Program-made: the position numbers and the translations under genes | DNA from: a virus | Virus genome (UHGV): UHGV-0258254 | DNA: 10,034 bases | Strand: one strand, 5' to 3' | Shown: piece by piece, positions 1 to 10,034 of the stretch | Position numbering within the stretch: the first letter of the stretch is position 1 | Layout: every line of letters starts with the position of its first letter | The notes under the pieces: model-generated | What the model was told of the DNA's origin: nothing | Databases searched by the model: none | The model's input: only the letters and a program-made list of their open reading frames with translations

Positions 1-164
1 CTTCCATCACACCGCCAAAGAATGCGCTGACAGGCTCCCAGTATTTACGGATAAGCAACGCCCCGGCGACAATTGCAGCCACCACGGCCACAACCGGCCA
101 GCTAATCGCCCCGATGGCCGTTATAACGGCACTACCAACCGTCGTGAAGATTGCACCCATTGCG
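1..164. repeat. Direct repeat copy A1 of tape-measure internal sequence (partner 568-731, a few mismatches)
   Basis: Read by eye: 1-164 aligns base-for-base with 568-731 except a handful of substitutions (e.g. catcac vs caccac; ggccgttataacggcactacc vs ggcggtcataacagcactgcc). The repeat may extend beyond the window start. Confidence 0.85.
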
Positions 165-442
165 GCCAGCTCAGCCGCCGCCGTGCTGATGACCGCCGCC
201 TCAAGCGGAAAGCTGGACAAACTGACCGCTGCGTTTAAAGCCTCAGACGGGAAGACCGCCGAGCTGGTAAATATCATGCAGGACAACCTCGGCGGCGACT
301 TTAAGGAGTTTCAGTCCGCTTATGAGGCGGTGGGGACTGACCTGTTTGACCAGCAGGAAGGCGCACTGCGTAAGCTCACGCAGACGGTCACAAAGTATGT
401 GTTAAAACTCGACGGCTGGATCCAGAAAAACAAATCACTGGC
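164..442. repeat. Inverted repeat copy B1 (279 bp) of tape-measure internal sequence; partner 849-1127 in opposite orientation, about 98 percent identical
   Basis: The plus strand at 164-442 is the reverse complement of 849-1127 with about 4 mismatches. The plus-strand translation gives SSAAAVLMTAASSGKLDKL...DGWIQKNKSLA, the same peptide the minus-strand T gene encodes at 849-1127 (with S/T and V/A substitutions). Confidence 0.85.
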
Positions 443-2452
443 TTTGACCGGGGCAATCAGGTTTTTAAACCACTGCCACGCGGCCTGTAACTTTTCACCC
501 AGCCAGTCAAACAGCGGCTTAAGTGGCGTGAACAGCTCCCCCACCGGCGCAAATGCCGCTTTCAGCCCTTCCACCACACCGCCAAAGAATGCGCTGACAG
601 GCTCCCAGTATTTACGGATAAGCAACGCCCCGGCGACAATTGCAGCCACCACGGCCACAACCGGCCAGCTAATCGCCCCGATGGCGGTCATAACAGCACT
701 GCCAACCGTCGTGAAGATTGCCCCCATTGCGCCTGCTGCCGCGATGATGGCATTGATGCCGGTGATAACCGGCCAGGCTACAAGACCAATGGCACCGATG
801 ACACCAATCAGCGCCAGTGCACCACCGACAATGAGGCCGATGGTTGATGCCAGTGATTTGTTTTTCTGGATCCAGCCGTCGAGTTTTAACACATACTTTG
901 TGGCCGTCTGCGTGAGCTTACGCAGCGCGCCTTCCTGCTGGTCAAACAGGTCAGTCCCCACCGCCTCATAAGCGGACTGAAACTCTTTAAAGTCACCGCC
1001 TAGGTTGTCCTGCATGATATTTACCAGCTCGGCGGTCTTCCCGTCTGAGGCTTTAAACGCAGCGGTCAGTTTGTCCAGCTTTCCGGTTGAGGCGGCAGTC
1101 ATCAGCACGGCGGCGGCTGAGCTGGCCTCCTCCCCGAAAATAGTTTTCATGTATTCAGCCTGCTGGGCAGTACCGAGCCGGTTTTTCTCAAAACTGGCCT
1201 GCATTTCTTTCAGAATGGTAAATATTGGCCGGGTGTTTCCCTTGCTGTCTGAGGTTTTCACACCAAGCTCTTTGAGTGCATCCCATGCTTTTCCCGTCGG
1301 TGCCTGCAGGCGGCTTAACACGGCACGGCTTCCCGTCCCCGCCATTGAGCCTGTGATTTTTGCATCATGCAGCGCCCCGACCATTGCGGCGGTTTCTTCA
1401 ATGCTGACACCGGCATTTTTTGCCACAGGTGCGGCATAGGTCAGCGCATCGCTCATGCCGTCAAAATCGGCGGCGGTTTTGTTCATCGTCATGGAGAGAA
1501 CATCCCCGATATGAGCGACCTTATCGTTTGAAAGCTGAAAGGCGGATTTCATCCCCATCAGCAGGGCGGCGTTTTCTTCCATCGTGCGGCGGTTCGCCAG
1601 CGCCATATTCAGCGTGACCGGCGTTGCCGCCTGAATGGCATCAACATCCCCACCCGCTTTCGCGATGATTATCTGTGCACCGGCCGCATCATCCGCCGAG
1701 GCGGCGGTATTGTCGCCGAGCTGGCGCGCCTGTTTGCGTAGTGCGGTCATTTCGGCGGAGTCTTTTGCCACTCCGAGCACGGCCTGCAATTCTGAGTTTT
1801 TCTGCGCAAACTCATAACCGGGCATCAGCAACTTAACTCCGGCCATCGTTCCCGCCGCCGCAATCCCCACACCGGCAGCGCCCACTGAGGCCATATTTCC
1901 GGCCAGTTCCTTGCCTGCCTGATAACGCTGTTTTACTGCGTTAAGTTTTGCCTGTTGCGCACTGACACGCGCCAGCGCGTCACGCTGACGGTTAAGCTGT
2001 GCGGTGGTTTCACTGATACGGTTTTTCAGTCCCTGCTCATCATGTGCAAGATTGCGGGTATTAATTCCCACAACGGCCAGTTCCCGCTGCTGGCGTTTAA
2101 CGGAATCCGTCAGGCGGTTATATTTCGCCTGTAAGTCCTCCGCCGCACGCTTTGCGGATTCCAGCACTTTCGCCTGAGCACGTGTCGGACGTTCGGTGTT
2201 TTTAAACTGTGTGGCAAGGGCTTCGGCCTCCTGCCGTGCCTTTTCAAGTGCATGACCAGTCACGGCGAGCTGTGCACTGGTCTTGCGAAATCCCTCAATA
2301 CGGGATGCCTGACCGTTCAGCTCACGCAGTGATTTTTGTGTTTCCCGGATATCCCCCGACAGCGATTTGCTCGCTGTGCGGATGGATTTAAACGGGCGGG
2401 ATGCCTGGTCAACAGCCCTGAGCAATACCTGTAATTTTACATTGTTACTCAT
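320..2452 (-). CDS. T: Phage tail tape measure protein (P2 gpT-like); 3' end disrupted by rearrangement, C-terminal ~40 codons (320-442) are antisense of an inverted T fragment
   Basis: 710-aa ORF immediately downstream of E/E' with its start overlapping the E' stop. It has a long coiled-coil-like Q/A/R/L-rich N-terminal region and a Gly/Ala/Ile-rich hydrophobic segment typical of tape measure proteins. Its position after the frameshifted chaperone pair matches P2 order. The region below 442 is not authentic T sequence. Confidence 0.8.
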   Translation of the reverse strand: MSNNVKLQVLLRAVDQASRPFKSIRTASKSLSGDIRETQKSLRELNGQASRIEGFRKTSAQLAVTGHALEKARQEAEALATQFKNTERPTRAQAKVLESAKRAAEDLQAKYNRLTDSVKRQQRELAVVGINTRNLAHDEQGLKNRISETTAQLNRQRDALARVSAQQAKLNAVKQRYQAGKELAGNMASVGAAGVGIAAAGTMAGVKLLMPGYEFAQKNSELQAVLGVAKDSAEMTALRKQARQLGDNTAASADDAAGAQIIIAKAGGDVDAIQAATPVTLNMALANRRTMEENAALLMGMKSAFQLSNDKVAHIGDVLSMTMNKTAADFDGMSDALTYAAPVAKNAGVSIEETAAMVGALHDAKITGSMAGTGSRAVLSRLQAPTGKAWDALKELGVKTSDSKGNTRPIFTILKEMQASFEKNRLGTAQQAEYMKTIFGEEASSAAAVLMTAASTGKLDKLTAAFKASDGKTAELVNIMQDNLGGDFKEFQSAYEAVGTDLFDQQEGALRKLTQTATKYVLKLDGWIQKNKSLASTIGLIVGGALALIGVIGAIGLVAWPVITGINAIIAAAGAMGAIFTTVGSAVMTAIGAISWPVVAVVAAIVAGALLIRKYWEPVSAFFGGVVEGLKAAFAPVGELFTPLKPLFDWLGEKLQAAWQWFKNLIAPVKASDLFFWIQPSSFNTYFVTVCVSLRSAPSCWSNRSVPTAS

Positions 2453-2872
2453 TCGTGTTTCCGCTTCGCCGGAGCGCCTTTTCGCGCCATGTGATGAGTT
2501 CGGTCAGGCTCATGGGATACAGTTCTGATGGCGGCCAGTGAAATATCACTGCCACATCCGCCATCAGGTCATCGACCGAGAGATTTTTCGGAAACGTCAC
2601 TGCACCGAGTTCGGCGACAAAAAACCGACCACCTTACCGGCCAGCGCCACAAGGTCAGGCAGTTCCAGCGCGGCGACCTCCTGCTCGGTCAGCATCGGCG
2701 CCGTCATGCGCGGCAGCACTTTAATCAGTGCATCGACTTCGGAGTTCGCGACCGCTGCCAGACTGACACCGCGCAGCGTCCCGGCATTGGGTTTCATCAG
2801 CGTGACCTGTTCGATAACCTGCTCACCACGTTTGACCGGATTTTCCAGGGTAATGACATTTTCTTTATTCAT
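2445..2872 (-). CDS. Tail assembly chaperone gpE+E', product of programmed -1 ribosomal frameshift (predicted 142 aa)
   Basis: I translated the -1 frame by hand from the slippery site: VAELGAVTFPKNLSVDDLMADVAVIFHWPPSELYPMSLTELITWREKALRRSGNTNE, ending at TAA 2445-2447, which overlaps the T start (ATG 2450-2452). 85 + 57 = 142 aa, the size I recall for P2 E+E'. Confidence 0.8.
2597..2872 (-). CDS. E: Tail assembly chaperone gpE (91 aa)
   Basis: 91-aa ORF between tail tube FII and tape measure T, ending GFLSPNSVQ with an in-frame T TTT TTG slippery heptamer. Size and position match P2 gpE. Confidence 0.88.
   Translation of the reverse strand: MNKENVITLENPVKRGEQVIEQVTLMKPNAGTLRGVSLAAVANSEVDALIKVLPRMTAPMLTEQEVAALELPDLVALAGKVVGFLSPNSVQ
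2618..2624 (-). other. -1 programmed frameshift slippery heptamer T TTT TTG (X XXY YYZ) in gene E
   Basis: Minus-strand codons are ggT TTT TTG (G83 F84 L85 of E); the plus strand reads caaaaaa at 2618-2624. Confidence 0.8.
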
Positions 2873-2900
2873 GGTTTTCTCACTTCTGAATCAGGGTTAA

Positions 2901-2921
2901 CCGGTCAGCCTGGCTGACCGG
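2901..2921. repeat. Perfect 21-bp palindrome ccggtcagcc-t-ggctgaccgg in the FII-E intergenic region (potential RNA hairpin)
   Basis: Seen directly: a 10-bp arm, one central base, and the exact reverse-complement arm. It lies between the FII stop (2929) and the E start (2872). No U-tract follows on the transcribed (minus) strand. Confidence 0.7.
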
Positions 2922-2928
2922 ATGAAAA

Positions 2929-3447
2929 TCACAGGCCGATATTACGGCGGTGTTGCTCCAGCCGGTCGACGCCGTTCACCTTCTCAATCATGTTGATGGT
3001 GTCGATTTCGACCAGCTCCTTACCGTCCATCGTCAGCCGGAAATAGGTGCAGACCACGGAGATTTTCGACTCGGTGTCTTCTCCCTGTTTCCCCTCGCCG
3101 GTGTCGATTTCTTTCTGACGTCCACGCATGACCACTTCGACGGCCACCGTTTCGCCGGTATCGTCACGCTGGTAAGAGCCTGCAAAACGAATCGGCACAG
3201 CATCCACACCGGTTGCGGCGTAAAGCTCCCAGATAACCGAATCCGGGAAGCCACCGAGTGACCACTCCATTGACAGCGCATCGTCATCAAGGCCGAGGTC
3301 TACCGGTGCGCTGCCGTTCATCCCCGCACCGCGATAGTTTTCGAGCTTACGGGTCAGTTTTGGTAGCGTGACGGACTTCGCGACGCCCTGATAGCTGTAG
3401 CCGTTCAGAAAGACGTTCATTAACTTGAGTTTGCGCGGCATTGCCAT
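2929..3447 (-). CDS. FII: Tail tube protein (P2 gpFII-like), 172 aa
   Basis: 172-aa ORF directly downstream of the sheath gene. The sequence MAMPRKLKLMNVFLNGYSYQGVAKSVTLPKL... and its size match what I recall of P2 FII. The sheath-tube-E/E'-T order is conserved. Confidence 0.9.
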   Translation of the reverse strand: MAMPRKLKLMNVFLNGYSYQGVAKSVTLPKLTRKLENYRGAGMNGSAPVDLGLDDDALSMEWSLGGFPDSVIWELYAATGVDAVPIRFAGSYQRDDTGETVAVEVVMRGRQKEIDTGEGKQGEDTESKISVVCTYFRLTMDGKELVEIDTINMIEKVNGVDRLEQHRRNIGL

Positions 3448-3459
3448 CGGTCAGGCTCC

Positions 3460-4650
3460 TTAATTGCTGTTAACCGAGGTGACCAGATTTGCCAGGTATT
3501 TATCGGTAATACGCTGGCGCAGGGTCAGGTTTTCAAGAGGAGGCACCGGGGTATAGTCGTAGTCGATATACAGTTTTCCGGCCTTAAGGGTTTCCGCATC
3601 GTTGGATTCTTCGCTGAACCAGCAGGTCGCATCCACGATATAGCCGTTTGTTTTCAGCTCACGGAATTTGGCATTGATGCCGTCAACGATGTCGCGAATC
3701 AGCGTTGCGGTGATGGGCTTGTCCACCGCCCACATGTGCGCCTCAGCCATCGTGTCGGCCAGCACCTGCGCGGTGCGGGTGTAGTTTTCAAAGAGGAACA
3801 GCGGGTCATCAGAGCAGGTACGGTTACCCCAGAATCGGAAACCGTCGCGGCGAATCAGCGTAGTGACGCCTGACTCGTTAAGCAGGTCAGCATCGGTGCC
3901 GGACTCCTGCAAATCCCAGAATACAGATGCGCTGATGCCGGTAACACCGTTCACCCCGACATTGGACAGCGTTTTATGCCAGCCCTGCTCCTGGTCGATT
4001 CTGGCACGCAGACCCAGCGCACGGGCGGTGGCATACGCGGTGGCGGTGGTGCTGGTGACCGTATCCCATGCGAGGAAATCCGGCCAGATGACCATCAGCT
4101 CACGCTGGCTGAAATTCTGGCGGTAGGCTTTCACCTCGGAAATGGTTTTACAGCCCCATGCGCTGATATACCCGAAAGCGCGCAGCTTCTGACAGACTGA
4201 TGCCAGTGCTACAGCCACCTCTTTGGTATCCAGTCCCGGCACACCAAGAATACGCGGTTTAACACCGGTTACCGACTCCGCCGCCAGCAGGGCTTTCAGT
4301 CCGGTGTACTGACCGTTTTCGTCAGTGGTGCCGATGATATTGGAAACGGTCTGCGCAAGTTTCGTTTCTTCGTCGTCGCCGGTGCCGTCCTCCACGCGCA
4401 CAACAACGGTGACCGGTTTTGACTGGTCGGCGATAGCCTGCAACGATGCCGCCAGCGTGCCTTTTTTACCGGCCTTTGCAATTGCGCTCTGCACATTGGT
4501 AATCAGCACCGGTTTATTGAGGGGGAAGGTTTCCGCATCCGCATCGCTGGCCGTGCAGACCATGCCAACAATGGCAGTGGATACGGTGGAAATGACGCGG
4601 GTGCCGTCGTTAATCTCCAGCACCTGCACGCCGTGATGATAGTCACTCAT
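3460..4650 (-). CDS. FI: Contractile tail sheath protein (P2 gpFI-like), 396 aa
   Basis: 396-aa ORF matching the size of P2 FI, upstream of the tube gene. A GGAG ribosome-binding site sits about 9 nt upstream of the ATG on the minus strand. Confidence 0.9.
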   Translation of the reverse strand: MSDYHHGVQVLEINDGTRVISTVSTAIVGMVCTASDADAETFPLNKPVLITNVQSAIAKAGKKGTLAASLQAIADQSKPVTVVVRVEDGTGDDEETKLAQTVSNIIGTTDENGQYTGLKALLAAESVTGVKPRILGVPGLDTKEVAVALASVCQKLRAFGYISAWGCKTISEVKAYRQNFSQRELMVIWPDFLAWDTVTSTTATAYATARALGLRARIDQEQGWHKTLSNVGVNGVTGISASVFWDLQESGTDADLLNESGVTTLIRRDGFRFWGNRTCSDDPLFLFENYTRTAQVLADTMAEAHMWAVDKPITATLIRDIVDGINAKFRELKTNGYIVDATCWFSEESNDAETLKAGKLYIDYDYTPVPPLENLTLRQRITDKYLANLVTSVNSN

Positions 4651-4709
4651 CCGTTTAACTCCGTGGTTAATGGGTGAGTGGTATTTTCAGTTGTGCCGGA
4701 GATGTCAGG

Positions 4710-5303
4710 CTATTTGTCCCGGTTGGCTAAGGGATGACACAATTTATTCTTTGTCGCTGATGAGGGGAATTTCTTATAGAGCGTGGACAGGCCAATATCA
4801 AAAATCAGCGCCACGCGTTGACGAGATTCCCCCGCAGCCAGCAACCGTCCGACCTGCTCCCACTCACTCGCGGTGAGTTTCGGACGTCTGCCACCAATAC
4901 GACCTTTGGCTCTGGCCGCTTCCAGTCCGGCGCGTGTCCGCTCGACAATGAGTTCTCGCTCCATTTCAGCCAGGGCACCCATCACATGAAAGAAAAAACG
5001 CCCCATCGGCGTGCTGGTATCAATAGCATCCGTCAGACTGCGAAAATTAACGCCGCGTTCGCGCAGTTCCTCAACCAGAATGACCAGATGCCGCATACTA
5101 CGCCCCAGCCTGTCCAGCTTCCAGACTACCAGAGTGTCACCTGCTGATAATGTTCTGAGCAGTTTTTTCAGTCCCGGTCTGTCGGACTTCGTGCCGCTGA
5201 TTTTATCCTCAAAAATCCGCTCGCATCCTGCGCACTCCAGCGCGTTACGCTGCAATTCCGTGTTCTGGTCATTTGTTGACACGCGTACATAGCCAATAAG
5301 CAT
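4710..5303 (-). CDS. Site-specific DNA invertase, serine recombinase of the Hin/Gin/Pin/Cin/Min family (about 197 aa; likely start at the second in-frame Met, MLIGYVRVST)
   Basis: The N-terminus MLIGYVRVSTNDQNTELQRNAL carries the catalytic Ser motif. VVWKLDRLGRS, SPMGRFFFHVMGALAEMERELIVERT and the C-terminal HTH ending STLYKKFPSS are near-identical to what I recall of Gin and Hin. It lies next to a crossover site. The ORF track extends it two codons further upstream, to 5309. Confidence 0.93.
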   Translation of the reverse strand: MLIGYVRVSTNDQNTELQRNALECAGCERIFEDKISGTKSDRPGLKKLLRTLSAGDTLVVWKLDRLGRSMRHLVILVEELRERGVNFRSLTDAIDTSTPMGRFFFHVMGALAEMERELIVERTRAGLEAARAKGRIGGRRPKLTASEWEQVGRLLAAGESRQRVALIFDIGLSTLYKKFPSSATKNKLCHPLANRDK

Positions 5304-5358
5304 GAGCATCCCCCTGAATAAAAACCGGAGATGATGCCAGTTGCCCGTTATCTCTGCA

Positions 5359-5384
5359 TTTTCATAAACGTTGGTTTAGGAGAA
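5359..5384. other. Invertase crossover site 1 (hix/gix-like 26-bp site), plus strand ttttcataaacgTTggtttaggagaa
   Basis: Its reverse complement TTCTCCTAAACC-AA-CGTTTATGAAAA fits the Hin/Gin half-site pattern TTnTCnnAAACC flanking a central AA dinucleotide. It is in inverted orientation to the site at 7227-7252. The inner half ggtttaggagaa matches the inner half of site 2 at 11 of 12 positions. Confidence 0.75.
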
Positions 5385-5882
5385 GGCTCAGCATTGCCTG
5401 TTGGCGTACCTGTTCCGTGGCCCTCAGCCACTCCGCCAACAGGCTGGCTAAAATGCAACGGAGCAGCTTTTTCTGCTGAAGAATACCCAGAACTGGCAAA
5501 GGCTTACCCGACAAATAAATTGCCTGATTTACGTGGTGAGTTTATTCGTGGCTGGGATGACGGACGTGGTATGGATACGGGGAGGGCAATATTATCAGCT
5601 CAGGGCGATGCCATACGTAATATCTATGGTGAGTTCAAGACTGTAAACACCGAAAATTATTCAATATGGGAATCAGTAGGCTCGTTTAAGGGGGCAGTGG
5701 TGCCTTTGAATCCCTCAACGAACAATAGTTATTTCTCCTTAATCAGAAGTATGGTGACTGAAAGAACAGATGGCGCTGTTTACCCAAAAGTGATTGGTCT
5801 TGATGCTTCAAGAATTGTTCCAACTGCAAACGAAAACCGTCCTCGTAACATTGCCTTTAATTATATCGTGAGAGCTGCCTGA
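5385..5882 (+). CDS. Silent alternative tail-fibre C-terminal cassette (about 165 codons, no own start; expressed only after inversion fuses it to the constant N-terminal part of H)
   Basis: The frame is continuous through the crossover site (…NVGLGE|GSALPVGV…) and has the same phase as the LGLGE codons at the site inside H. It encodes a receptor-binding tail-collar-like domain (PWPSATPPTGWLKCNGAAFSAEEYPELAKAYP…LPDLRGEFIRGWDDGRG). The ATG at 5331 in the ORF track lies outside the segment and is probably fortuitous. Confidence 0.7.
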   Translation, partial: GSALPVGVPVPWPSATPPTGWLKCNGAAFSAEEYPELAKAYPTNKLPDLRGEFIRGWDDGRGMDTGRAILSAQGDAIRNIYGEFKTVNTENYSIWESVGSFKGAVVPLNPSTNNSYFSLIRSMVTERTDGAVYPKVIGLDASRIVPTANENRPRNIAFNYIVRAA

Positions 5883-6484
5883 TGAATAAAGCCGTATTAA
5901 ATAACGAACTCATTGCCATAAAAGCGGGAGACATTACCATTTATAATTATGATGGTGAAACGCGGGAATATATTTCCACATCAACTGAATATCTTGCGGT
6001 TGGCGTCGGTATCCCGGCATGTTCTTGTTTAGATGCACCAGTTACACATAAAGCTGGTTATGCAATCTGCCGTTCTGCAGATTTTAACTCATGGGAATAT
6101 GTGCCAGACCATCGCGGTGAAGTTGTCTATAACACCGAAACGGGAGAATCAAAAGAAATCACAGCTCCGGGTGATTACCCTGAAAATACAACCACTATCG
6201 TCCCGTTAACGCCATACGATAAATGGGATGGTGAGAAATGGGTGACAGATACTGAGGCACAGCATAGTGCCGCAGTAGACGCGGCAGAAGCACAGCGCCA
6301 GTCACTGATTGATGCAGCAATGGCTTCCATCAGTCTGATTCAGCTGAAATTGCAGGCCGCACGTAAACTGACGCAGGCAGAAACAACCAGACTTAACGCC
6401 GTGCTGGATTACATTGACGCGGTGACGGCAACAGATACCAGCACCGCGCAGGATGTCATCTGGCCTGAACTGCCGGAGGCGTAG
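5882..6484 (+). CDS. Tail fibre assembly chaperone (Tfa/gpG/Mu U-like), cognate to the silent fibre cassette, 200 aa
   Basis: Its start overlaps the stop of the upstream cassette (ATGA). The C-terminal motif LNAVLDYIDAVTATDTSTAQDVIWPELP is the conserved Tfa C-terminal signature, and the gene sits directly after a fibre C-terminus. Confidence 0.75.
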   Translation: MNKAVLNNELIAIKAGDITIYNYDGETREYISTSTEYLAVGVGIPACSCLDAPVTHKAGYAICRSADFNSWEYVPDHRGEVVYNTETGESKEITAPGDYPENTTTIVPLTPYDKWDGEKWVTDTEAQHSAAVDAAEAQRQSLIDAAMASISLIQLKLQAARKLTQAETTRLNAVLDYIDAVTATDTSTAQDVIWPELPEA

Positions 6485-6875
6485 GCCATTCAATATCTGG
6501 AGCACTGGAGGTATCAACCAGTTCCAGTGCGTCCAGATAATCCAGCCACAAATTATATTGCGCCAGTTCCTCACCTTTCAGACGACCAATAGCCGCTTTA
6601 CCAGGCCATTGCCTGCTGTTCATGTGCTCGTTGGCTTCATTAATAAGTTTTCCTTTTTTCAACTCTGCCAATGCAATAAGGTTTTCTTTTGATAAAGGTG
6701 GTTGCTCTGTCAAAACCGGATATCCCTCCTGATTGCTGACTATTTTCATGCCATTATCCTGACCATCCAGTAGTGACAGCCATTCATCCGTGGTTATCTC
6801 AACAGCATCTGAAGGTGCTTTATTTAAATCGGTAAAAAAACCATTTTCTTTTTGTGAATAGAAGTATCTGTCCAT
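6456..6875 (-). CDS. Tail fibre assembly chaperone (Tfa/gpG-like), cognate to the currently expressed fibre, 139 aa
   Basis: It lies immediately downstream of the fibre gene on the minus strand. The C-terminal motif NLWLDYLDALELVDTSSAPDIEWPTPP is the Tfa signature. Its 3' end overlaps the alternative Tfa convergently at 6456-6484. Confidence 0.8.
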   Translation of the reverse strand: MDRYFYSQKENGFFTDLNKAPSDAVEITTDEWLSLLDGQDNGMKIVSNQEGYPVLTEQPPLSKENLIALAELKKGKLINEANEHMNSRQWPGKAAIGRLKGEELAQYNLWLDYLDALELVDTSSAPDIEWPTPPAVQAR

Positions 6876-6878
6876 TTA

Positions 6879-8066
6879 TCAATCTCCAAAAGCAATCCAG
6901 TAAGCAAAAGGATTTATTCCTTGCTCAGTCACAGATGACATCAGGGAAAATTGCGATGGTGAAACAGGTAATGCTGCAAAACTAACCATTGTTGACACAC
7001 CTGACCGTGCATTATCGTACGATGCAACAACACAATAATTGGTATTGCTGAAAGATATCGGCAGGGTGATATTTACAGGTGAGCCTAATGGCCCTGATGC
7101 TGATATTCCCATTTGAATGATGGTTCCATCAGGCAATTTTCTCCAGCGATTAGAACTCGGATTTCTTTTCCAGGATGACATATCCGGTATCTGATTTTCT
7201 CCTGTGCCCACATCCCTTTTCGCCGCTTCTCCCAAACCAAGGTATGCGAGAAGACCAGCTACATCCTTTCCACTCAAATGAGTCAGCGTCTCATCCAGTG
7301 GCTGCTTACCTGACAGCGCATTGTTAATGGTGGCGCTGAATTTCGGGTCATTGTTGATAGCTGCGGCAATTTCTTTCAGTGTGTCCAGCGTGTCAGGGGC
7401 ACCGTTAATCAGAGCGGTAATAGCGGCCTGTACAAACGCAGTGGTCGCAATCCGCGTGGTGTTATTTCCTGCGGCAGGCGTCGGCGCTTTTGGCTCTCCG
7501 GTAAATGTCGGATTATGTTTCTGTGCATACTGGGTATGAGGGTCCTGTGCGGCAATGTGGTTTCTCATCTGGTCATCCACATACAGCCTTAATTCCAGGA
7601 CTTCATCATCCACGTATTTACGGGTCGCCAGTACCACCGACGGGTCGATTTTCAGCGTAATAGCTTCGGTATTCGTGACAACCAGAATCATGCGGATAGT
7701 CTGGGTACGACCGCTGCCTTCCTGCAACTGCGGTTTGTACGTTTCCGGGCAGTTCGCCACCGCAATGAGTACGCCTTCATCATCATAAAGCCCAATCTCA
7801 CGGATCCAGAATCCGCCCTCGTTCTCAGGGATGATTTGCTCCGCAATAATCTGGCTCTGGTTGTTCGGGTCAACACTCAGAAGATTCAGCGGCGCGATAC
7901 GTTTCTGGTTAATCAGTTTTGTCTGTGCCGGGTCTGGTGTCGGCAAGACACCATTCGCATCACCAACGGCCATTTGCGTCAGATTCAGCTTACTGCCGAG
8001 CATCGTCGCGTTAGCCAGCCGTGCTGCGCCCTGATTAGTCAGAATGGCGTAGTATTTCACTGTCAT
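6879..8066 (-). CDS. H: Tail fibre protein (P2 gpH-like N-terminal constant region fused to the currently in-phase variable C-terminal cassette), 395 aa
   Basis: The N-terminus MTVKYYAILTNQGAARLANA…MAVGDANG…GGFWIREIGLYDDEGVLIAVAN…GSGRTQTIRM resembles the P2 H / Mu S fibre N-terminal domain, and TAFVQAAITALINGAPDTLDTLKEIAAAINNDPKF is a conserved fibre motif. The crossover site lies within the codons for LAYLGLGE (about residue 280). The gene sits downstream of I, as in P2. Confidence 0.85.
   Translation of the reverse strand: MTVKYYAILTNQGAARLANATMLGSKLNLTQMAVGDANGVLPTPDPAQTKLINQKRIAPLNLLSVDPNNQSQIIAEQIIPENEGGFWIREIGLYDDEGVLIAVANCPETYKPQLQEGSGRTQTIRMILVVTNTEAITLKIDPSVVLATRKYVDDEVLELRLYVDDQMRNHIAAQDPHTQYAQKHNPTFTGEPKAPTPAAGNNTTRIATTAFVQAAITALINGAPDTLDTLKEIAAAINNDPKFSATINNALSGKQPLDETLTHLSGKDVAGLLAYLGLGEAAKRDVGTGENQIPDMSSWKRNPSSNRWRKLPDGTIIQMGISASGPLGSPVNITLPISFSNTNYCVVASYDNARSGVSTMVSFAALPVSPSQFSLMSSVTEQGINPFAYWIAFGD
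7227..7252. other. Invertase crossover site 2 (hix/gix-like), plus strand TTCTCCCAAACC-AA-GGTATGCGAGAA, inside the tail fibre gene
   Basis: The left half TTCTCCCAAACC fits the Hin/Gin half-site pattern and the core is AA. It matches the reverse complement of site 1 at about 20 of 26 positions. Both sites encode G-L-G-E in the same phase. Confidence 0.75.
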
Positions 8067-8674
8067 GCGTTTACTCTCAGGTTATCAATTAAATGAATGG
8101 CCGAGGCCGGGAAATAATCCCCTCCGACAATAATGGCCTCCGGGGTGTAGGGATAAACCGTCAGGGCGTCGCCGTGATAGCATCCCGCACCGGCAAAAAT
8201 GTTGCCGGTTGTACTTAAACTGATAGCCAGTCCCGTCAGATGGCGGCTTGCAGGTTTTGCATCAGCAACGAGACGCTCCAGCTCCTGATACATTTCCTCG
8301 GTAATACCCTGCTCAAGCACGCCAACAACGATGCGGAACGTCCCCGGCTCCTCGTTGAGCTGCCACCACTCCCTCACCTCAATCAGATAGCCGAGCGGCT
8401 CCACCACACGGCGAATCGCACCAATAGTGCCCTTATGGCAGTGAATGAAATACGCATCGCGGATAACAGCGCGTTTTGTCGCTTCCGGCCACTTATCATC
8501 CCAGCGGTCAACCGAAAATGACCACGCCAGCCACGGCAGCAGATTTGCCGGGCAGGTGTCCGGGTTCCACAGCTCACGAATACTGACCGGCGTTTTTTCA
8601 ATTTCCGCACAGGCTTTTGCGGCGGCGACTTCAAGCGGTGATGAGCCGGTCGGCAGCAGTCGCGAATCACTCAT
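8063..8674 (-). CDS. I: Baseplate wedge / tail protein (P2 gpI-like), 203 aa
   Basis: It sits between J and H as in P2. Its start overlaps the J stop by 8 nt and its stop overlaps the H start (ATGA). The sequence MSDSRLLPTGSSPLEVAAAKA… is recognisable as gpI-like. Confidence 0.85.
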   Translation of the reverse strand: MSDSRLLPTGSSPLEVAAAKACAEIEKTPVSIRELWNPDTCPANLLPWLAWSFSVDRWDDKWPEATKRAVIRDAYFIHCHKGTIGAIRRVVEPLGYLIEVREWWQLNEEPGTFRIVVGVLEQGITEEMYQELERLVADAKPASRHLTGLAISLSTTGNIFAGAGCYHGDALTVYPYTPEAIIVGGDYFPASAIHLIDNLRVNA

Positions 8675-9575
8675 CCGAGCCTCCGGTCACGACGCTGTAT
8701 TCGGTGCAGAAAGACGCCTGCGTACTGTTGAGCACAATGTCGGCCAGTGGTGCGGCCAGCTCGACACGCTGCACGCCTTCCACATGCAAAGCGGCATAAA
8801 TGGCAGACAGACGGATGTCGCGCCCCAGCCGGTGCTGTGCCGTGATATACGCTTCCAGTTTTTTCACGGCGGCAGCGCGGATGGGTTCGCTTTCGGGACC
8901 AGGGTAAAGATACAGCGTGGCGTTTATCTGGTATTCAACGATGGCGGCAGACTGCACGGTCACGCGGTCGGCCACCGGCCTGACGTCCTCGCCATTAAGG
9001 GCGTTACGCACCACGGCCAGCAGGTCTTCGGATGCGACGCCGTTATTTTCACGTGACAGCACAGAGATGGTGACACAGGCAGGAGACGGGCTGGTGACAG
9101 AGATATCCGCGACACGCCCGTCGGCACTGCGACCATGATACTGATAGGCACCCACCGACCCGGCGACGCTTAAGCCCTCAAACGCCTGCTGAATACGCAG
9201 ACGATAATCGGTGTCAGACTCCATCACTGCCGGTGTCGGCGGGATAGTCGAATCATCTGCCGGGGTGATAATCAGGCGCGTGGTGTTGTAATTGGCACCA
9301 ATCACATCAAGGTCATTACCGGCAGCACAGGCCAGCATCACCGCCCGTGCAGCCTCATTCACACGCTGACGCCAGATAAGCTCACGATAAGCATTTTCCT
9401 CCAGCAGTTTGACGAGAGGCTCAGATTCCAGCGTCAGGGTACGGGCGACCGCCTCCTGCTGGTCTTCCGGGTAAAGGGAAATCAGTGTCGCCTTGCGTTC
9501 AGCGAGAATGGTTTCAAAGTCCAGCTCCTCGACCACATCCGGTGCGGGTAGCTGGTTCAGGTCGATAATCGGCAT
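8667..9575 (-). CDS. J: Baseplate assembly protein (P2 gpJ-like), 302 aa
   Basis: 302 aa, the size I recall for P2 gpJ. It lies immediately downstream of W. The sequence MPIIDLNQLPAPDVVEELDFETILAERKA… is recognisable. Confidence 0.9.
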   Translation of the reverse strand: MPIIDLNQLPAPDVVEELDFETILAERKATLISLYPEDQQEAVARTLTLESEPLVKLLEENAYRELIWRQRVNEAARAVMLACAAGNDLDVIGANYNTTRLIITPADDSTIPPTPAVMESDTDYRLRIQQAFEGLSVAGSVGAYQYHGRSADGRVADISVTSPSPACVTISVLSRENNGVASEDLLAVVRNALNGEDVRPVADRVTVQSAAIVEYQINATLYLYPGPESEPIRAAAVKKLEAYITAQHRLGRDIRLSAIYAALHVEGVQRVELAAPLADIVLNSTQASFCTEYSVVTGGSDE

Positions 9576-9579
9576 GGTT

Positions 9580-9927
9580 TCAACTCACAGGGATGGTTAA
9601 CGAAAGTGGCTGGCCGGTGTCGTTGTGCTGGCCGGTTAACGTGACCGTCATTCGCCCGTCAAAGCTGCGCGCCGTGGTGACGGATGACAGGGTGACGCGG
9701 GGTTCCCATTTCAGCACCGCCATGTAACAGGCGACCTTAATCTGCAACTCAAGCGCCGGGGTCTGCGGCTGGTCAATCATTGATGCCAGCAACGAGCCGT
9801 AATCACGACGCATCACCCGTGAGCCGACCGGTGTACGCAGGATATCGCCGATACTCTGGCTGATATGCTCAAGGTCAGTGACAGTCAGGCCATCACTGCG
9901 ATTCATTCCGAGATAACGCGCTGTCAT
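9580..9927 (-). CDS. W: Baseplate assembly protein (P2 gpW-like), 115 aa
   Basis: 115 aa beginning MTARYLGMNRSDGLTVTDLEHISQSIGDILRTPVGSRVMRRDYGS…, which I recognise as P2 gpW. Its start ATG overlaps the V stop (ATGA). Confidence 0.92.
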   Translation of the reverse strand: MTARYLGMNRSDGLTVTDLEHISQSIGDILRTPVGSRVMRRDYGSLLASMIDQPQTPALELQIKVACYMAVLKWEPRVTLSSVTTARSFDGRMTVTLTGQHNDTGQPLSLTIPVS

Positions 9928-10034
9928 AGAGGTCCCCCTGTTGTGCCGCCACTGTCGCCGGGGTGTTTATGGGTATGCAGTACCTTACCGTTTGATGAGA
10001 GTTCACCGCCGGTGTGTTCAATGTTGCCGCGCAT
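9924..10034 (-). CDS. V: Baseplate central spike protein (P2 gpV-like), C-terminal 36 codons only; the N-terminus lies beyond the window end
   Basis: Hand translation of the minus strand from the window end gives …MRGNIEHTGGELSSNGKVLHTHKHPGDSGGTTGGPL* in the frame that ends with a TGA overlapping the W start. Its position upstream of W matches P2. Confidence 0.8.
   Translation of the reverse strand: MRGNIEHTGGELSSNGKVLHTHKHPGDSGGTTGGPL

Follow-up and report, generated by a model that had tools for sequence, protein, structure and literature searches.

Evidence for a two-state DNA inversion switch at the tail-fibre tip of a P2-like prophage

We analysed a 10,034-nucleotide stretch of the virus genome UHGV-0258254 (the window), in which a gene for a serine DNA invertase lies beside a segment of tail-fibre and fibre-chaperone genes. 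This module most probably (probability ~0.93) constitutes a two-state, site-specific inversion switch of the Gin/Cin/Pin/Hin class, by which a P2-like prophage of Escherichia coli controls the end of its tail fibre that binds the receptor. The switch is real and had been interpreted correctly by a first, sequence-only reading of this DNA; it is also common and already known.

To follow the consequences of inversion, the reverse complement of window positions 5372-7239 was inserted in silico. The open reading frame (ORF) of the fibre remained uninterrupted, its product changing from 395 to 445 residues. A fibre of 445 residues is annotated, as a tail protein coding sequence of 1338 bp, in two related loci with the flipped arrangement (L001 and L002). 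When the window was aligned to these loci by blastn, 2790-5385 and 7226-10034 on either side were collinear, while 5371-7243 matched in reverse at 99.9% identity; the constant N-terminal part of the fibre (Sc) was collinear in both orientation states. A 900-bp probe for the flipped junction was recovered as a single piece in Escherichia coli strains 2196 (100.0% identity) and 2018-02-2CC (99.9%). In the annotated regions of the two flipped strains the flanking genes are unchanged and the whole cassette pair is reversed. Among complete E. coli genomes with at least 80% probe coverage, the flipped junction was present in 26 and the unflipped junction in 15. Comparative genomics thereby detected the inverted orientation, the search for which had been named beforehand as a refuting test, in near-identical prophages with a reciprocal exchange of half-sites.

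The point of exchange could be placed within the 26-bp crossover sites that bound the segment. Written as half-sites, the left site is TTTTCATAAACG-TT-GGTTTAGGAGAA (5359-5384, plus strand) and the right site TTCTCGCATACC-TT-GGTTTGGGAGAA (7252-7227, minus strand). The two sites are inverted, have 20 of 26 bases in common and both carry a central TT when read from outside to inside. A single base, A or G at position 19, distinguishes the inner half-sites GGTTTAGGAGAA and GGTTTGGGAGAA, and in flipped L001 this difference is found on the opposite sides. The swap of the inner half-sites, combined with the differences between the outer half-sites, confines the exchange to 5371-5376, including the central TT. 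Judged from these sequences, the pattern is that of reciprocal site-specific recombination, not of homologous recombination or an assembly accident.

Such inversion might be genuine and yet not be the work of the adjoining invertase, if homologous recombination at the repeats or a Pin-family invertase acting in trans were responsible; we consider this very improbable. For RecA-mediated exchange the 20 shared bases, with a longest run of 7 nt, are far too short, and recombination occurred at the site centre, as expected of a serine invertase. Action in trans has a precedent in PinQ of prophage Qin, which inverts the e14 segment (PMC12529663). Moreover, several Pin-type invertases often occur in one E. 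coli genome, and a probe of invertase plus cassette matched 3,624 of 5,426 genomes, in up to 12 places each. However, the action of such relatives would add to that of the cis enzyme and not replace it. With few exceptions, the 79 related loci collected from IMG/VR have a site 81 nt upstream of the invertase start, and from this fixed offset we argue that invertase and site function together.

A search of the window with the consensus of the site family (up to 3 mismatches) returned exactly two matches, compared to 0.00 expected from 200 shuffles. They coincide with the positions proposed in the sequence-only reading, 5359-5384 and 7227-7252. The half-site consensus given there, TTnTCnnAAACC, was borne out for the two inner half-sites, which fit it perfectly, but not in full for the outer half-sites, each of which is one base off. 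A generic inverted-repeat search did not report the pair, because its seed was too long for a longest exact run of 7 nt. We extracted comparison sites from the annotated records of P1, Mu and e14. P1 cixL and cixR, Mu gixL and gixR (the boundaries of the G segment) and the two e14 sites follow one 26-bp pattern in common with the window sites. The left site of the window departs at one base from the site next to pinE in e14, TTTTCATAAACGTTGGTTTGGGAGAA, to which that of L001 is identical. The proposed alignment to known crossover sites holds for the gix/cix/pix family. In the P1 record, the crossover is assigned to the two bases in the middle of the site, corresponding to 5371-5372 and 7239-7240 here; the crossover points are 1868 bp apart. 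The proximal site is separated from the invertase gene by 55 nt. The distal site is translated as part of the fibre (..LLAYLGLGE..), with ..AYLGLGE.. retained in both orientations.

No third site was found in the 10-kb window, either in a looser scan (at most 5 mismatches in 20 specified positions) or in a scan for half-sites; the switch is therefore a two-state one, as had been predicted. A multi-segment shufflon offering more than two fibre variants, as in Min of p15B or in a P2-like prophage of enteropathogenic E. coli (EPEC) with three repeats, is known among relatives: two IMG/VR loci, L039 and L044, have three and four crossover-like sites, of which some lie downstream of the invertase gene, and the EPEC prophage has its three repeats (PMC4272514). 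L039 and L044 are likely, from their sequences, to be multi-state versions of the type of switch seen in the window. For the window itself this reading is extremely improbable, considering that it contains just two fibre C-termini and two chaperones, and two sites instead of the three or more of the p15B Min type, which we rejected as a model. Among the 79 IMG/VR loci, exactly two sites were present in 57 and three or four in two; most of the loci with a single site are truncated at a contig end.

The ORF at 4710-5303 encodes a serine invertase, as had been proposed. Its product contains the Pfam domains Resolvase (residues 5-137; 8e-53) and HTH_7 (residues 140-183; 5.5e-13), and residues 1-182 matched the crystal structure of Mu Gin (3UJ3) at E=4e-94. 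Global protein identity is 85.9% to PinE, 78.0% to Cin and 77.0% to Gin. The catalytic Ser9, within the motif YVRVSTNDQ, aligned to Ser9 of Gin; R7, D64, R65 and R68 are also present and are identical to those of Gin, Cin and PinE. The RefSeq protein WP_000905108.1 is annotated at the matching position in the related loci L001-L003. Above the curated cut-offs, NCBIfam gave no match for the invertase, the fibre or the chaperones. The start of the gene was assigned to 5303 (MLIGYVRVS), in agreement with identical genes in RefSeq, with Gin, Cin and PinE, and with the position of a GGGGG ribosome-binding run. An upstream ATG at 5309 was rejected as too near this run.

Within the segment, each of the two variable fibre tips is accompanied by its own Caudo_TAP chaperone, and the two cassettes are convergent on opposite strands, with the invertase just outside. 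The sequence-only reading had described two fibre C-termini and two Tfa chaperones in this arrangement, and we recovered a Gp53-like_C tip on the minus strand, a Collar tip on the plus strand and two Caudo_TAP domains. In the orientation of the window the fibre ORF extends over 6879-8066 (minus strand). The alternative C-terminus (Sv') has neither a start codon nor a promoter of its own downstream of the proximal site. The chaperone ORFs overlap tail to tail by 29 bp (6456-6484), exactly as do tfaP and tfaE of e14 (L004, 3018-3046). In addition, the chaperone genes are homologous at their 3' ends, where they form an 18-nt inverted repeat (6403-6420 and 6529-6546). At the protein level, the silent chaperone is 91.5% identical to TfaE and the silent tip 57% to StfE; the expressed chaperone is 55% identical to TfaP. 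To judge by these identities, the module has a mosaic make-up and is related to the e14 P segment. The silent cassette (window 5363-6536) also shows about 92-93% DNA identity to stf plus tfa of the siphoviruses HK97 and HK106, which clearly points to the exchange of a fibre module between phages of unrelated types.

Coordinates of the inversion module and of the flanking tail genes in the window
Feature	Position	Strand	Basis or remark
Tape-measure gene	320-2452	minus	Pfam
E/E'	2445-2872	minus	Position; 97% DNA identity to P2
Tube gene FII	2929-3447	minus	Position; 97% DNA identity to P2
Tail sheath gene FI, module flank	3460-4650	minus	Pfam sheath domains
DNA invertase gene, 197 aa	4710-5303	minus	Pfam Resolvase and HTH_7
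Predicted Fis-dependent recombinational enhancer, gene nt 19-90	5214-5285	minus	Positional homology to P1 cin enhancer
ORF with Collar domain	5331-5882	plus	Pfam
Invertase-proximal 26-bp crossover site, pix/gix-like	5359-5384	plus	TTTTCATAAACGTTGGTTTAGGAGAA; crossover at central TT 5371-5372
Silent alternative fibre C-terminus (Sv'), Collar domain	5385-5882	plus	Pfam Collar 8e-16
Silent alternative chaperone Tfa', 200 aa	5882-6484	plus	Pfam Caudo_TAP 4.5e-30
Chaperone Tfa of the current-orientation cassette, 139 aa	6456-6875	minus	Pfam Caudo_TAP 2.3e-26
Variable fibre C-terminus (Sv), in frame in this orientation	6879-7226	minus	Pfam Gp53-like_C 2.6e-12, residues 310-394
Distal 26-bp crossover site, within fibre ORF	7227-7252	minus	TTCTCGCATACCTTGGTTTGGGAGAA; crossover 7239-7240
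Constant N-terminal fibre part (Sc), outside invertible segment	7253-8066	minus	Pfam Phage_tail_fib N-terminal 1.2e-62
P2 gpI-like baseplate protein, upstream of fibre gene	8063-8674	minus	Pfam Tail_P2_I 3e-56
Baseplate J protein	8667-9575	minus	Pfam Baseplate_J
gpW	9580-9927	minus	Position; match to P2 W

We propose the following mechanism. The fibre gene is read from the minus strand within the late V-W-J-I-H operon; its first 271 codons (8066-7253) are fixed, followed by the 26-bp site and by whatever sequence lies beyond it, which is translated as well. In the present orientation, this yields a 116-residue Gp53-like tip, followed by the 139-residue chaperone. Invertase dimers would bind the two inverted sites and cut both at the central TT, whereupon one pair of subunits would rotate by 180 degrees before religation. 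The resulting inversion of 5372-7239 would put the 166-residue Collar-type tip and the 200-residue chaperone into frame. The particles released by a population of lysogens would thus each carry one of two fibres, for which different receptors, and hence a consequence for host range, are expected. Synapsis is probably activated by the host protein Fis, bound to an enhancer that would lie within the initial ~90 nt of the invertase gene.

A Fis-dependent enhancer in the 5' part of the invertase gene had been suggested by analogy with Hin and Gin, and our analysis lends this indirect support, making such an enhancer, as well as dependence on Fis, likely. The P1 record carries an 'enhancer of Cin-mediated C-segment inversion' at nt 19-90 of cin. 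Across the homologous stretch of the window gene (5214-5285), identity to cin is 77.8%, versus 67.6% in the remaining gene, and there is a like contrast relative to gin and pinE. Two 15-mers of the form G-N13-C, at 5268-5282 and 5219-5233 (gene nt 22-36 and 71-85), lie in nearly invariant patches. They are kept in nearly all of 24 diverged invertase genes, a set obtained by reducing the 79 IMG/VR loci to genes of less than 97% identity and including the window, pinE, gin and cin. McLean et al. (PMC3798978) report that in Hin the enhancer and Fis are contacted by K47, R48 and K51 and by Q151, R154 and L155, residues whose conservation is limited to Fis-dependent invertases. In the alignment with Gin and Cin, the window invertase has K46, K47 and R50 and, within EWEQVGRLL, Q..RL at these positions. 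A rule-based hunt for Fis sites was ambiguous, with several frames possible, and for this reason the enhancer call rests on homology to cin and on lowered synonymous variation (see below). The AT-rich TTTTT run at gene nt 89-93 does not fall within the spacing that hin would predict.

In the spacer that separates the invertase start from the proximal site, the minus strand contains a weak terminator-like hairpin followed by TTTTTATT (5323-5342). The spacer with this hairpin is conserved with e14 and in part with Mu. The hairpin might insulate the invertase from read-through of the late operon, or might belong to its promoter region. When the spacer from site to start was aligned with those of e14 and Mu, it proved conserved but without clear promoter hexamers.

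Several observations weigh against the proposed switch. The evidence for inversion comes from comparison between strains, not from within the source strain. The promoter scan gave no sigma-70-like promoter upstream of the invertase, with counts no better than those of shuffled sequences. The tape-measure gene is disrupted at its 3' end. As to the enhancer, synonymous-site entropy is reduced to 0.63 bits in codons 7-30 versus 0.89 elsewhere (Mann-Whitney p=0.03), but this signal is modest, derives from 24 related sequences and spans the translation start too, with minima at codons 1-12 and 25-30. Likewise, the candidate Fis 15-mers are 49 bp apart from centre to centre in a frame that we chose ourselves, which agrees only approximately with the 47 bp between Fis site centres in the hin enhancer (PMC3798978).

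Part of this evidence would also fit a frozen relic, in which invertase or sites have lost their activity in this prophage; the two orientations observed in different strains would then be old states that have become fixed. The window shows one orientation only, the promoter scan gave no invertase promoter, and the damaged-looking tape-measure gene nearby suggests a decaying prophage. In contrast, the invertase ORF is intact with all catalytic residues, both crossover sites are intact, and segments of 99.9% identity are found in opposite orientation. Three RefSeq proteins (WP_000905108.1, WP_000376436.1 and WP_032277171.1) occur in both orientation states, which argues for recent and repeated flipping. 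We regard a relic as quite improbable. The invertase is presumed to have a promoter, and the two-state switch to be active in the source strain.

The module is set in a P2 backbone, at the position of the P2 genes H and G, as the sequence-only reading had stated. The ORF listing of the window showed the tail-cluster ORFs on the minus strand throughout, with five ORFs between the sheath gene and the gpI-like gene (invertase, Collar ORF, two Caudo_TAP ORFs and fibre). By blastn, nucleotide identity to P2 is 97.3% across window 439-4730, covering the pF promoter region, FI, FII, E and T, and 94.4% across 8238-9867, covering W, J and the 5' part of I. Together with the Pfam domains, these identities establish the P2-like gene order W-J-I-H-G ... 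FI-FII-E/E'-T. The 3.5 kb between these two stretches stand in for the 3' end of I and for H, G and Z/fun of P2: classical P2 has a fixed H-G pair, as had been noted, and in addition carries Z/fun at the position of the module.

On the right, homology to P2 stops at 8238, within the gpI-like gene. The left boundary falls within the invertase gene, homology to P2 extending leftwards from 4730. The final codons and the stop codon of the invertase are P2 DNA of the pF activator-site region. The pF late-promoter region of P2 (about 4651-4747) overlaps the 3' end of the invertase gene; a part of the activator site, TTGTG...TTAGCCAACCGG, is kept at window 4710-4747, and the end of the invertase gene therefore overlaps the late promoter of the sheath operon. 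That the gene end runs into P2 pF DNA also explains the C-terminus of the invertase, which is 13 residues longer than that of PinE.

The P2 record itself (L086) contains a crossover-like sequence, TTATCGAATATCTCGGTTTACAGGAA, at 2858-2883 within gene H, although P2 has no invertase. Its 26 bases include 4 mismatches to the Mu gix site TTATCCAAAACCTCGGTTTACAGGAA. This putative relic site suggests that the P2 fibre gene descends from an invertible ancestor.

The tape-measure end of the window has an unusual structure. Over window 1-438, fragments of the tape-measure gene are joined in scrambled order: 1-178 is a direct, diverged copy of 568-742 (96% across 1-164), and 164-442 is the reverse complement of 849-1127 (97%). 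Only from 439 onwards is the window collinear with P2 and with its best match in E. coli, and the tape-measure ORF is cut to 710 residues, compared to 815, and ends in a foreign C-terminus. The scrambled arrangement was contiguous in none of 5,426 complete E. coli genomes. Most likely, the left end is a contig-end chimera between two P2-like prophages; alternatively, it may be a private rearrangement that makes the prophage defective. Were the damage to the tape measure real, no infective particles would be made and the switching of host range would be moot.

The closest relative of the module is the Pin/P segment of e14 in E. coli K-12 (pinE, stfP-tfaP / tfaE-stfE). The invertase gene shares 83% DNA identity with pinE, the spacing from site to start is 54 nt in e14 and 55 nt in the window, and both systems have two sites and two convergent cassettes with a 29-bp chaperone overlap. 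However, e14 is a lambdoid remnant whereas the backbone of the window is that of P2, the fibre tips are just 33-57% identical, and the segment measures 1797 bp in e14 (PMC12529663) versus 1868 bp in the window.

The proposed likeness to the Mu G, P1 C and e14 P segments was confirmed by comparison with the annotated records. With Mu Gin and P1 Cin the window shares the enzyme family (77-78% identity), the family of 26-bp sites and crossover at a central dinucleotide. Mu G and P1 C also have a constant Sc joined to alternative Sv or Sv', each with its own chaperone (U or U'), and the enhancer annotated within the 5' end of cin corresponds to the one predicted here. In contrast, the segments measure 3 kb in Mu and 4.2 kb in P1, more than in the window, to whose backbone those of the two phages are unrelated. 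Moreover, the C segment of P1 has long inverted repeats, cin faces the segment, and cixL overlaps the 3' end of cin. Salmonella Hin belongs to the same enzyme family, acts on 26-bp hix sites by the Fis/enhancer mechanism and has contact residues conserved here (PMC3798978). Unlike the window invertase, Hin lies inside its H segment and flips a flagellin promoter, not a cassette of coding sequence.

Other P2-like phages (Peduovirus) share the backbone and carry an invertase between the fibre/chaperone genes and FI, at the P2 Z/fun hotspot. Escherichia phage pro483 matched 72% of the probe at 92.5%, and a 'DNA invertase' is annotated in it at this place, as one also is in S164 and in 'P2' of O157:H43 T22. 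Among these relatives the combinations of fibre tips vary, and some have three repeats and four states. Nothing that we found sets the copy in the window apart in kind from invertase-bearing P2-like prophages.

Such prophages are abundant. The best matches to the whole module were in E. coli strains 12867 and OkiPb01691 (99.4-99.5% identity), and of 5,426 complete E. coli genomes, 581 (~11%) carry in one piece the junction between the 3' end of the invertase and the P2 sheath gene. Inversion has also been documented: Goldberg et al. demonstrated it by sequencing and polymerase chain reaction in e14 and in two P2-like prophages of EPEC E2348/69, one of them two-state and one with three repeats (PMC4272514). 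Furthermore, the P2 Z/fun hotspot 'often' carries a DNA invertase, with inversion of adjoining genes (bioRxiv 10.1101/2024.10.15.618418). The novelty implied by the sequence-only reading can therefore not be upheld, given the frequency of these prophages, the two reports, and pro483 and other phages.

The switch matters little beyond correct annotation. The silent C-terminus at 5385-5882 is neither a separate gene nor a pseudogene; rather, the fibre protein has two forms. In assembly and typing, the 1.87-kb segment will turn up in either orientation. Those who engineer phages or tailocins have in the module, ready for use, a switch between two receptors on a P2 chassis.

In e14, the StfE2 chimera blocks adsorption of phage T2 after Pin-mediated inversion (PMC12529663). 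By analogy, one fibre state of the window prophage might act in the manner of StfE2, the prophage forming part of a cross-talking, invertase-controlled anti-phage system that serves the host. We consider this quite unlikely; it draws on the relationship of the silent cassette to stfE-tfaE (57% and 91.5%). Since the proximal site is nearly identical to that of e14, the window invertase could also flip segments of the e14 type at other places in the genome. Provided that the tape-measure gene is truly damaged, the module would owe its retention mainly to such a host-side role.

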